NCBI GenBank assembly: GCA_963665845.2 | Contig: OY762492.1 | Span: forward strand, 800,001 to 864,000 | Length of the DNA: 64,000 bases | Direction of reading: 5' to 3' | Origin: Candidatus Poribacteria bacterium | GTDB lineage: Bacteria; Poribacteria; WGA-4E; GCA-2687025 | Shown: positions 24,369 to 57,094 of the stretch, piece by piece | How the letters are laid out: the number at the start of each line of letters is the position of its first letter | Position numbering within the stretch: position 1 is the first letter of the stretch | Made by a program: the position numbers and the translations under genes | The notes under the pieces: generated by a model | The model's input: only the letters and a program-made list of their open reading frames with translations | Told to the model about the DNA's origin: nothing | The model's database searches: none

Positions 24369-25700
24369 ATGATGCGCACCATTGCCGCTCTTTTTCTCGC
24401 CTCCGCCGCGCTTGTCAACCTTCACGCCGCCAGCCATGGCGACCATGCCGACGAAGCGTTTCAGCAGCTGAAAAAAACGAACGACGCTTACGCCGCCATC
24501 GACAAAGGCTCTTTCGAATGGAAAAAAACCCTCAGCTTCAACACCCCGCAAGGCAGCCGCGCCATTGAACAGCTCAGCCAGACCGACACGCTGGAGCTCT
24601 CCTCTGACAATCTCGCCCGATCCTCCAGCAGCATGGAGAATCCTGCCGGGCCCGAACTGCTGGACGCCGTTCTGATCAGTAACGGCAGCTTTTGGATCGC
24701 ATCGCCCGATTTTGGGGAGATCATGAAGACCGACTCCGCGCAGATTCGGACCGGATTTGCCGCATACACCTTTGCGGACAAAAACGGCGGATTTGCAACC
24801 AGCGGCCTCCCAGAATCCCCCCATTCCATTGACGAGATTGCCGTTCTGGAACTGCTGCCGGACGAAACGCTGGAGCTGAACGGAACCGAAAAAACATACA
24901 AAACGCTCAAAGTGTCGATCCAACCAGGCGCGCATGACAAGGCGCTGCAAAGGGCGTTTAGAGAGAAGGTGGGCAGACTCGGAATACTCCATGCGTTCCT
25001 TAATGTTGACCTGTATGAGATGAGCATGATTCAGTTCCATGTAGAAGAGCCGCCCATGGAAGCGACTCTCTGGATCGATCCTGAAACAAACCTCATCGCA
25101 AAACAGACCTTCGACGTTTCCGTCACCGCGAACGAACAGAAGCTCACCTTCACCTACAACATCGTTCAGAAAAGCGCATCGCTCAACGAGGATCCGCCCG
25201 CCGAACGGTTCGAGCCGGATCCGAAATGGAAAATGGTGGAGGAGTTCGGTCAACTGAAACCGGAAGTCGGCAAGCCGGCCATCGACTTCACGCTCAAAGA
25301 TCTGAGCGGCGGCGAGGCGACCATCTCCGATCTGAAAGGCAATGTCGTCGTTCTCGACTTCTGGGCGACATGGTGCGGTCCCTGCATCCAAGCGATGCCG
25401 CATCTCCAAAAGCTGTACGAAGCGTACAAGGATGACGGGCTGCTTGTCTACGGGGTCAACCAGGAGGATCCTCAAAAACCCGCGGAATTCTTAGAAGCGG
25501 GCGGATACACCTTCCCGACCTTCATCAACGCAAAAACCGCTTTCGTCCGATACCATATCAGCGGCATACCCGCCACCTATGTGATTGACCGCGACGGAAC
25601 CCTTGTCAACCACATCGTGGGATACGGCGGGGAAGACGACAAACGGCTTGAAGAAGCGTTGGAAAAAGCGCTCGCCAAAGGCTCTGAAGAAGCGGAATAA
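24369..25700 (+). CDS. TlpA-like redoxin with N-terminal LolA/DUF2092-like region
   Basis: Signal peptide; AIDFTLKDL, VVLDFWATWCGPC, GIPATYVID. Confidence 0.9.
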   Translation: MMRTIAALFLASAALVNLHAASHGDHADEAFQQLKKTNDAYAAIDKGSFEWKKTLSFNTPQGSRAIEQLSQTDTLELSSDNLARSSSSMENPAGPELLDAVLISNGSFWIASPDFGEIMKTDSAQIRTGFAAYTFADKNGGFATSGLPESPHSIDEIAVLELLPDETLELNGTEKTYKTLKVSIQPGAHDKALQRAFREKVGRLGILHAFLNVDLYEMSMIQFHVEEPPMEATLWIDPETNLIAKQTFDVSVTANEQKLTFTYNIVQKSASLNEDPPAERFEPDPKWKMVEEFGQLKPEVGKPAIDFTLKDLSGGEATISDLKGNVVVLDFWATWCGPCIQAMPHLQKLYEAYKDDGLLVYGVNQEDPQKPAEFLEAGGYTFPTFINAKTAFVRYHISGIPATYVIDRDGTLVNHIVGYGGEDDKRLEEALEKALAKGSEEAE

Positions 25701-54786: not shown

Positions 54787-55000
54787 GATGCTCTCCTGCC
54801 GATAAATCTGCCGTCACTTTTTAAGTAGTACGCTCATACGGGGATATTTGCGGCGCCGCGTCCGATTCCCCCCTTGAAAAGGGGGGCTAGGGGGGTTTAA
54901 AGGACGGGCGCGGCGGTTGCGATGCCTTAAGATTCCCGCTTACGCGGGAATGACGGCATGGATTGGCCGGCTGTCGCGCAAAAATGAATGTCATTGCTTG

Positions 55001-55492
55001 TTAGGTACTGCCCTTTTTCATTTGGCGCGGGAATCGTATTGCCGCGGCGATCTCTGTCGTGGAGCGCGTCTCAATATGCGGCGCGAGAACGACCTTGCCG
55101 CCCCCCTTCTCTACGGCTTCGCGCTCAACGATCTGCTCTATGGAGTAGTCGCCGCCTTTGACATGGATGTCAGGGCGGAGCGCCTGTATCATGGCGATGG
55201 GCGTATCCTCCTCAAAGACGACGGCGAACGCCACAGGCTTGAGCGCGCCAATCAGCTCGGCGCGTTCGTTGTCGGGAAGAAACGGGCGCGGCGCGCCTTT
55301 CAGCCGGCGCGTCGACTCGTCGCTGTTCACCCCGACAATGAGCATGTCCCCCAGCGACCGCGCATGGCGCAGATACCGAACATGCCCGACATGGAGAAGA
55401 TCGAAGCAGCCGTTCGTTGTGACGATCGTTTGTCCGTTTTGACGCGCCCTCCGCGCCTCTTCCGCCGCCTCTTCCAGGGTCAAGACGCTCAT
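55001..55492 (-). CDS. rfaE2: D-glycero-beta-D-manno-heptose 1-phosphate adenylyltransferase
   Basis: TNGCFDLLHVGH, VGVNSDES, HVKGGDY, RSTT. Confidence 0.9.
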   Translation of the reverse strand: MSVLTLEEAAEEARRARQNGQTIVTTNGCFDLLHVGHVRYLRHARSLGDMLIVGVNSDESTRRLKGAPRPFLPDNERAELIGALKPVAFAVVFEEDTPIAMIQALRPDIHVKGGDYSIEQIVEREAVEKGGGKVVLAPHIETRSTTEIAAAIRFPRQMKKGST

Positions 55493-55581
55493 TCGCCGCT
55501 CTCCGTCTGGCGGCGCTGCCATCCCCAATCGATCCCGCCTTCGTAAAACCGCTCTGGGTTTTCAACCGCCCAGATCTGTTT
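55489..55581 (-). repeat. diverged duplicate of the last 31 codons of the upstream selenoprotein gene
   Basis: 84/93 identical to 55695..55787. Confidence 0.9.
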
Positions 55582-55694
55582 TAAGAAGGTTCCCGACAAA
55601 CCGTCATTCCCGCGTAAGCGGGAATCTAGAGGCGGGGCAGAAACCGTCCGCCTTTGTCTGCCGCTATGCCTAAACTGAAACGTCAAGGTCTCGT

Positions 55695-56861
55695 TCACTC
55701 TTCTCTCTCCGCCTGTCGGCGCTGCCATCCCCAATCGATCCCGCCGTCGTAAAACCGCTCTGGATTTTCAACCGCCCATATCTGTTTACGGATGATGTAG
55801 TTTTTCGGGTCCAGTTTGAGCGCCGCTTTCATCTGCTCGGCGGCTTCCTCTTTTCTGTTCAGTTGAAGGAGCAGCTTGGCGTATCGGAAACGGCGGGATG
55901 CGTCCTGCGCGTCCAGTTCCACGGCGCGTTCGTAGGCGTTCAAGGCGCGCTCCGCCTCTCCCTCCCGTTCATACAGCTCGGCGCGCAGCGTGTGAAACGC
56001 GGCGTCGTACGGCAAAGCCAGCGACAGCGCCTCAACCGCCTTGAGCGAGGTTTCATGCGCAGGGTCAGGCTTTTTAAGCGGCGCGCCGATCGGTTTTTTC
56101 GCCCACTCTTCCGCCTGTTGTTGAGACGCCTTCCCGACAAACCTGCCTTTTTCATCGATGAGCAGCGTGTTCGGAACCGCCCTTAGCCCAAACAGCTCTC
56201 CCAGCAGGTTGTTCGCGTCAATCAGGTTCACATATTCCGCGCCTGCTGCTTCGATATAGCGCCGCGCCGCTTCGGCTCCCTGTATGTCGATGGCGGCGGC
56301 GATGACGATGAAGTTGTTGTCGCGGCGCTTATCATATAACGCTTGCCAACCTGGCAAGTTGTCCCGGCACCCTCACCAGCTCGCCCAGGTGTAGAGCGCG
56401 ATCCGTTTGCCGATCAAGCTGGAGAGGCGGATCATCTCGCCGTCCAGGTCGGGCAGGGCGATGTCCGGCATCCGTTCGCCCGGTTGAATGGAGCGGGTCG
56501 GCGCCGCCCCCGGCAAGAGAGCCGGCGCCTCCGCGGTCTCGTCCCAACCGAAATGCGCGTTCAGCAGCTCCGGCAAACGGGACGCCGACGCATAGAGGCC
56601 GCGCTCGGTTTGGAGAACGCGCCGGTCGCTTCCGTCTAAAAATATGTTGACGCAGAACTGGTTGATGCAGATGTTGACGCTTCCGTCGGGGAGCGGCTCT
56701 AGTTTGGCGTTGAAGGCGTCCGCGGCGGGTTGAAGCGGAACATACGCCGCGGCGCCGAACCGCCGGATGTCCAGCTCTAGGGCGGTTCCGTTCGCGTGGA
56801 TGCGCAGTTCGTCTGCCTGCGCGCATGCGGCGAGGGCGATCAGGGCGGCGTATATCGTCAT
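55695..56861 (-). CDS. secreted redoxin-TPR selenoprotein (Sec at UGA 56373-56375), about 388 aa
   Basis: ORFs 56373..56861 and 55695..56357 are in the same frame: MPDIALPDLDG...ALYTWASW*GCRDNLPGWQ...AVPNTLLID, then TPRs. Confidence 0.85.
56342..56358 (-). promoter_or_regulatory. bacterial SECIS-like hairpin
   Basis: CTTGCCA-GGT-TGGCAAG, 14 nt 3' of the UGA, with GGU at the apex. Confidence 0.75.
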
Positions 56862-57094
56862 GCGTCTTACCTGCGCTTCGGTTTAAAATAGGAGGTTCTG
56901 CCGCGATCTTAGCGCCGACCGCGCCGGGATGCAACCGCCTTCCCTCCGACCTTACCCTTAGAGTTAGGATAATTCTGGTTGTGAACGCGGACGGCGCCTG
57001 CGGCATCTAAGATTCCCGCTTGCGCGGGAATGACGGGCTGATTGGCGCGCCTTTTCCCATAAGACGGAATGACGGACCGGCAGGCGGATTGAGG

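Follow-up and report, generated by a model that had tools for sequence, protein, structure and literature searches.

The gene described here belongs to the UGC-containing Prx-like/TlpA selenoproteins, a family predicted since 2008, and does not represent a new kind of system. The family appeared as 'Prx-like (UGC-containing)', with 46 Sec sequences, in the 2008 GOS selenoproteome (PMC2398784) and is also treated in two reviews (PMC9312934, PMC13188914); there, as in the present case, a PF00578/TlpA fold is combined with a U-G-C site, Sec alternates with Cys among homologs and the proteins are known by bioinformatic prediction only. No member with measured activity was found in the literature searched. 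The protein studied here is encoded in a 64,000-nucleotide stretch of DNA from a Candidatus Poribacteria bacterium (the window), and its assignment follows from the family definition, a PF00578 domain plus a U-G-C motif, both of which it possesses; published representatives of the family are MBL6689828.1 and MDE0950781.1. With respect to the family as described in 2008, the window form adds a predicted signal peptide, a PF07833-like N-terminal domain, tetratricopeptide repeats (TPRs) and a conserved KQIW tail; neither this architecture, nor export, nor occurrence in Poribacteria was found described in passages on the family in the survey and the reviews.

Among curated models, the best NCBIfam match is NF041054 (WAxxUGC_long, ResA-like, 354 positions), which resembles the window protein in overall length and layout and aligns with its residues 96-369 over profile positions 50-324 (E 5e-47). 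The score of 161 bits falls short of the cutoff of 300, as do those of all nine homologs scored, four relatives from the phylum (152-157 bits) and five Cys homologs (178-287 bits). The motif name WAxxUGC was not found in the literature searched. Also comparable are ResA, CcmG (DsbE) and TlpA, which share with the window protein the fold (Z 18.5-18.8), a W-A-S/T-W-C site and an extracytoplasmic location, predicted in our case, but which have CxxC in place of UxC, lack Sec, the additional N-terminal domain and the TPRs, and are only 20-31% identical; the curated ResA/CcmG/TlpA models, whose cutoffs are 170 and 230 bits, give only about 56, and the peroxiredoxin model NF006960 scores 19.6 bits against 140. 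A one-residue spacer is also found in the CxC sites of YphP from B. subtilis and CsgC from E. coli, for which an oxidising, isomerase-type potential has been reported (PMC3173608). These two proteins are likened to ours by way of working and not by homology, CsgC having an Ig fold, unlike the window protein.

Reading frame, selenocysteine codon and SECIS element

The gene lies on the minus strand at 55695-56861, where a frame of 388 codons is interrupted just once, by a TGA at codon 163 (56373-56375) within the motif W-A-S-W-U-G-C-R, and closed by a terminal TGA at 55695-55697. Under translation table 11 the frame is divided into ORFs at 56373-56861 (162 aa) and 55695-56357 (220 aa). The first-pass annotation, which gave no strand, had described two ORFs in one frame separated only by a TGA at the position of the first Cys, and had read them as one protein of 388 residues that standard annotation would split; all of this was borne out, the public entries P0003 and P0004 corresponding to the 220-aa fragment. 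Reading the locus on the plus strand was discarded on account of multiple stops. A public assembly contig spanning 55618-56950 shows zero letter differences, but it possibly stems from the source study and is hence not independent. In two RNA-library assemblies from a related strain, short low-depth contigs, which may be background, flank the TGA on both sides. The presence of TGA instead of TGC or TGT is upheld by the assembly contig, with the same caveat as to its origin, and by the relatives.

The source genome contains the machinery for selenocysteine insertion: selA (E 7e-149), the C-terminal wing of selB (E 3e-17), selD above cutoff and itself with an in-frame TGA, and a tRNA-Sec with anticodon TCA (70.6 bits), which represents selC. 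A second selA/selB copy occupies a small contig (C3:1436-4711 of the source genome, G000), with selA split across two frames, and may be a haplotype of the assembly or a copy in decay. Across the phylum, the TGA is kept in all 30 translated loci, which read W-x-S-W-U-x-C-R throughout (29 UGC, one UAC), and in every one of the 96 best-ranked matches, drawn from 95 of the 151 genomes sampled, our own included; the remaining 56 genomes yielded weaker matches only, probably generic redoxins or TPRs. Of the 151 genomes, 144 gave a selA match; among the 95 carriers of the gene, 90 did so, and four of the five without one are 73-85% complete. The alternation of Cys and TGA proposed at the outset was recovered among database proteins, in that 40 of 42 matches have C-G-C at the site in a continuous frame, the other two being downstream fragments. 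The three conditions that the first-pass annotation had named as contrary to its reading (a genome devoid of Sec machinery, homologs with a residue other than Cys, TGC or TGT at the site) were all examined, and none of them overturned it. One homolog (L074, G072 C1:4476-4844) stands alone among those listed in having two in-frame TGAs; its genome, 95% complete, lacks a selA match, and the gene may possibly have decayed after loss of Sec decoding, although the assembly is in about 300 contigs.

The perfect 7-bp stem with a GGU apex reported 14 nt downstream of the TGA was found exactly so (CTTGCCA-GGT-TGGCAAG, 56342-56358, minus strand). Together with a weak lower stem, this upper stem and loop make up a bacterial SECIS element at 56338-56363, recognised by its geometry and covariation. 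Published criteria for such elements are a loop of 3-9 nt, a stem of 4-16 bp, a G in the first two loop positions, a spacing of 16-37 nt and a minimum free energy of at most -7.5 (PMC13188914); here the loop is a 3-nt GGU, the stem has 7 bp, the loop starts 21 nt after the UGA and the first 40-50 nt fold with -9.8 kcal/mol, so that all four values lie within the published ranges. Such a hairpin is rare in the genome: among 118,054 TGA triplets in six frames, 298 (0.25%) have a perfect stem of at least 7 bp at an offset of 12-18 nt, and only 16 (0.014%) combine it with a GG loop.

Three of the stem pairs are dictated by the L-P-G-W-Q codons, and covariation was therefore assessed at synonymous sites. 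Across the 30 loci from the phylum, the codon pair for Leu and Gln is CTG..CAG in 26 and TTG..CAA in 4, without a single mixed pair; the count of four double changes in the pair was matched in none of 500 shuffles, a figure that is not a probability, since kin loci are not independent. A scan of metagenomes by degenerate motif matched at least 120 stretches and gave, among the matches listed, 80 loci (76 with TGA and four with TGC), of which 75 distinct TGA loci were kept after one duplicate was dropped. In these, with the reservation that the Cys control is small, all 75 Sec copies have G as the third base of the Leu codon, as does only one of four Cys copies, and a 5-bp core is Watson-Crick paired in 71 of 75 against one of four. 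The same geometry (offset 14, 7 bp, G-loop) recurs identically in three other TGA-split redoxin genes of the genome and almost identically in selD; a relaxed genome-wide screen for TGA plus hairpin gave 43 candidates, mostly noise, and the recognisable ones were selD and four redoxins. Overlapping the L-P-G-W-Q codons and showing clean synonymous covariation, this SECIS element is well suited for testing SECIS models. From sequence evidence of this kind, we consider it highly probable that 55695-56861 is one gene whose TGA is decoded as selenocysteine.

Architecture, predicted export and phylogenetic placement

AlphaFold2 modelled the mature read-through protein, with Cys in place of Sec and an alignment of 60 sequences, at high confidence (pLDDT 93.6, pTM 0.90). 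A predicted signal peptide occupies residues 1-16 (56814-56861), with putative cleavage after A-Q-A. It is hydrophobic, carries an A-x-A word and has a weakly positive n-region, and its hydrophobicity is conserved: all 25 phylum proteins aligned, with starts chosen by eye, have a hydrophobic N-terminus, compared with two of 40 Cys homologs under the same threshold (Kyte-Doolittle 2.0 or more). The leader and its conservation support the earlier claim of an exported protein at the level of sequence features, and the mature protein is predicted to reside in the periplasm. A lipoprotein reading was provisionally set aside, because the lipobox-like word L-A-A-C (residues 10-13) is kept only in an 89%-identical ortholog.

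The leader is followed by an N-terminal domain (56502-56813) that had been called uncharacterised, a description to be corrected, since it appears to resemble Cu_amine_oxidN1 (PF07833): in the ESM Atlas it falls in with clusters of Cu_amine_oxidN1 (0.93, with 179 of 256 features in common), and five of nine relatives scanned pass the PF07833 gathering score of 24.2 with 28.5-38.9 bits. The window protein's own N-terminal domain has no Pfam match, and a fold search with this domain alone, in a single-sequence model of pLDDT only 65, gave nothing above Z 4.2, which is no sign of a new fold. The domain contains a Cys65-x4-Cys70 hairpin (codons 56652-56669), both cysteines of which are invariant in the 60 aligned sequences.

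The middle domain, about residues 124-259 (56085-56492), is a TlpA/ResA-type redoxin, with PF00578 (50.7 bits, cutoff 26) and PF08534 both above cutoff, and it holds the contracted UxC site, as first described, in the form W-A-S-W-U-G-C-R. Its Pro230 is invariant, and we take it to be the thioredoxin cis-proline position. The best fold matches are of the DsbE/ResA/TlpA type (3gl3, Z 18.8, rmsd 1.9, 134 aligned residues; ResA 2f9s, Z 18.5, rmsd 1.9, 132 aligned), with BCP-type peroxiredoxins next (Z 16.7-17.0). The TPR tail likewise holds up, in that about residues 273-350 (55812-56045) pass the Pfam cutoffs of PF13181, PF07719 and others and form helices in the model. The protein ends in a conserved tail, I-R-K-Q-I-W...F-Y...D-W-x-W-Q (55698-55799), which is about 50% identical even in distant relatives within the phylum and exceeds most of the redoxin domain in conservation.

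A quick tree took in 13 proteins from the phylum and 73 matches of 330-445 aa, 86 rows in all, and left out long repeat proteins, fragments and proteins with a canonical CxxC site; as it derives from a quick search and is midpoint-rooted, we claim no direction of change. The phylum proteins, a single Cys form predicted to be exported and six forms with a degenerate motif fall together in a branch of 20 rows (SH-aLRT 99), and the other 66 rows are mostly signal-less forms. A few proteins among these 66 have signal-like leaders too, and export is hence not unique to the branch that contains Poribacteria. The CxC site is kept in 66 of the 73 full-length relatives; one or both active-site residues are lost in seven, six of them inside the Poribacteria-containing branch. 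These six (P0060, P0069, P0090, P0185, P0166 and P0071) retain the architecture with an incomplete CxC, and four of them also lack the Cys pair of the N-terminal domain, a joint loss that hints at a connection between the two Cys centres. What is new, then, is a branch of its own, in which TPRs and a KQIW tail go along with a predicted signal peptide in most members, a modest variant of the family that was not found described, as an exported TPR-bearing branch of Poribacteria, in the literature searched.

Proposed function and alternative readings

We propose, giving it about an even chance, that this TlpA/ResA-fold protein isomerises disulfides or repairs thiols in the periplasm, fed by DsbD. 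SelB would bind the GGU-loop hairpin and insert Sec163, the 16-residue leader would deliver the protein to the periplasm, and the Sec163 selenolate would attack a wrong disulfide or an oxidised cysteine of the client; Cys165 would resolve the mixed bond, leaving a strained Se-S ring for the genome's DsbD to re-reduce. Binding of the client might fall to the TPRs and KQIW tail, and stabilisation of the protein or the relay of electrons to the PF07833-like domain and its Cys pair. Isomerase or repair chemistry is favoured by the potentials reported for CxC motifs, which range from -130 to -200 mV and lie near those of DsbC and DsbG (PMC3173608). By analogy, CxC motifs would be relatively oxidising, as in isomerases. 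Selenium shifts redox potentials, however, and these values may not carry over to U-x-C. The genome encodes DsbD in an 822-aa open frame (G000 C1:890011-892476, minus strand), and neither DsbB nor VKOR was found in it, at 90% completeness. Both of the tandem N-terminal domains of DsbD contain a Cys-x4-Cys hairpin spaced like the pair in the selenoprotein, a superficial resemblance only. A leader with a Kyte-Doolittle value of at least 2.0 was detected in two of 40 Cys homologs, and the other 38 have no signal peptide and appear cytoplasmic, which indicates that the core activity needs no periplasm; the loss of active-site residues in the seven relatives mentioned above means, in turn, that the role may in part be other than redox.

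The alternative that survives best, a selenium-dependent periplasmic peroxidase or sulfenic-acid reductase in which peroxide would oxidise Sec163, Cys165 would resolve and DsbD would recycle, seems to us unlikely. Peroxiredoxins have the peroxidatic motif PxxxT/SxxC, and no such motif precedes U163, where the sequence reads ALYTWASW with a TlpA-type W-A-S-W; the GSHPx match is below cutoff, and the TPRs and conserved tail suggest a protein client. This has to be balanced against the AhpC/TSA match in Pfam, the BCP/Prx folds almost level with the top ones, the name 'Prx-like' under which the family entered the literature in the 2008 account, and the three further Sec redoxins of the genome, also predicted to be exported.

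Gene context bears on a second alternative, rather unlikely in our estimation, according to which the same selenoprotein is a dedicated ResA/CcmG-like reductase that keeps the CxxCH of apocytochrome c reduced, with TPRs resembling the CcmH/CycH chaperone. In family f4 the gene abuts an upstream gene for a small exported mono-haem CxxCH cytochrome of 122-126 aa, usually downstream of a transketolase, in all ten loci (L064, L066-L074); in one genome, G035, the cytochrome-redoxin unit is present twice in tandem. Being kin, though, the f4 loci count as one event, the cytochrome neighbour occurs in none of the eight loci from other families, and a single query did not find such a cytochrome in the 90%-complete source genome. 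The top fold matches to ResA and DsbE and a weak TPR_CcmH_CycH match (E 3e-5, below cutoff) would suit this reading, as would the two cytochrome c assembly (PF01578) genes in the genome; on the other hand, the gene lies far from them, and most homologs lack export signals.

A further reading, distinctly unlikely as it stands, would make the protein a two-centre periplasmic selenoenzyme, in which the Cys-x4-Cys hairpin relays electrons from DsbD to the U-G-C Se-S ring, with the TPR-KQIW tail choosing a particular client. If true, the lineage, in which neither DsbB nor VKOR was found, would have in this protein an equivalent of DsbC/DsbG that depends on selenium. The accompanying suggestion that the exported UGC branch is near-core in several Poribacteria families carries the same reserve.

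We regard as improbable that the PF07833-like domain, thioredoxin fold and TPRs together serve mainly for binding or as a chaperone, with U-G-C as a redox switch or soft-metal site instead of a catalyst: six relatives of the same branch keep the architecture without a complete CxC, the tail is conserved above most of the redoxin domain and PF07833 mediates dimerisation in a Paenibacillus superoxide dismutase (PMC10432803), but U-x-C persists in 30 of 30 phylum loci with its SECIS under selection, and CxC in the large majority of full-length relatives. That the TGA is a true stop, separating two genes or reflecting a pseudogene or assembly error, is very improbable, for although gene callers produce a 220-aa downstream protein with a TTG start, the thioredoxin fold would be cut at its catalytic residue, neither TAA nor TAG replaces TGA in any of the 30 translated loci, Cys homologs are continuous and the SECIS covaries.

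Distribution and genomic setting

Stored as fragments although present in 95 of 151 genomes, the gene represents an annotation error repeated across the phylum and put right here. The wide use of selenocysteine by Poribacteria, to judge from the frequency of selA, was likewise not found described in the literature searched. As no functional study of the UGC family was found there either, a confidently modelled and probably soluble member offers a convenient object for assay. No operon is conserved across Poribacteria families among the 18 loci compared, the window included; of the window's own neighbours, a TonB-dependent receptor recurs in two of these loci and a cytidylyltransferase-like gene in three, counting the window, and in both cases among close kin only.

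The three further TGA-split redoxins of the genome (G000 C1:2982679, 2983206 and 549172, minus strand) share the motif F-Y-R-G-x-W/F-U-P-x-C and have signal-peptide-like leaders; two of them lie about 500 nt apart. To judge from these sequences, the genome seems to hold a small set of exported selenoproteins. The canonical CGPC TlpA cited for contrast in the first-pass annotation is indeed present at 24369-25700 of the window, as a 443-aa protein, predicted to be exported, in which a lengthy uncharacterised N-terminal region precedes a C-terminal WATWCGPC TlpA domain.

The gene's final 96 nt recur 206 nt further downstream at 90% identity, with a palindromic repeat in between (55486-55787). 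The second copy (55486-55581, minus strand) is an orphan 3' end, outside the coding sequence and strain-specific, and it overlaps the start of the downstream cytidylyltransferase-like gene. The 3' end of the 89%-identical ortholog has the sequence of the downstream copy and overlaps the next gene, and the contig of a related strain lacks the 206 nt, both of which point to a recent strain-level duplication or insertion. REP-like palindromic repeats occur at 54924-54956, 55601-55633 and 57008-57036 of the window, and their core pattern has 807 matches genome-wide.
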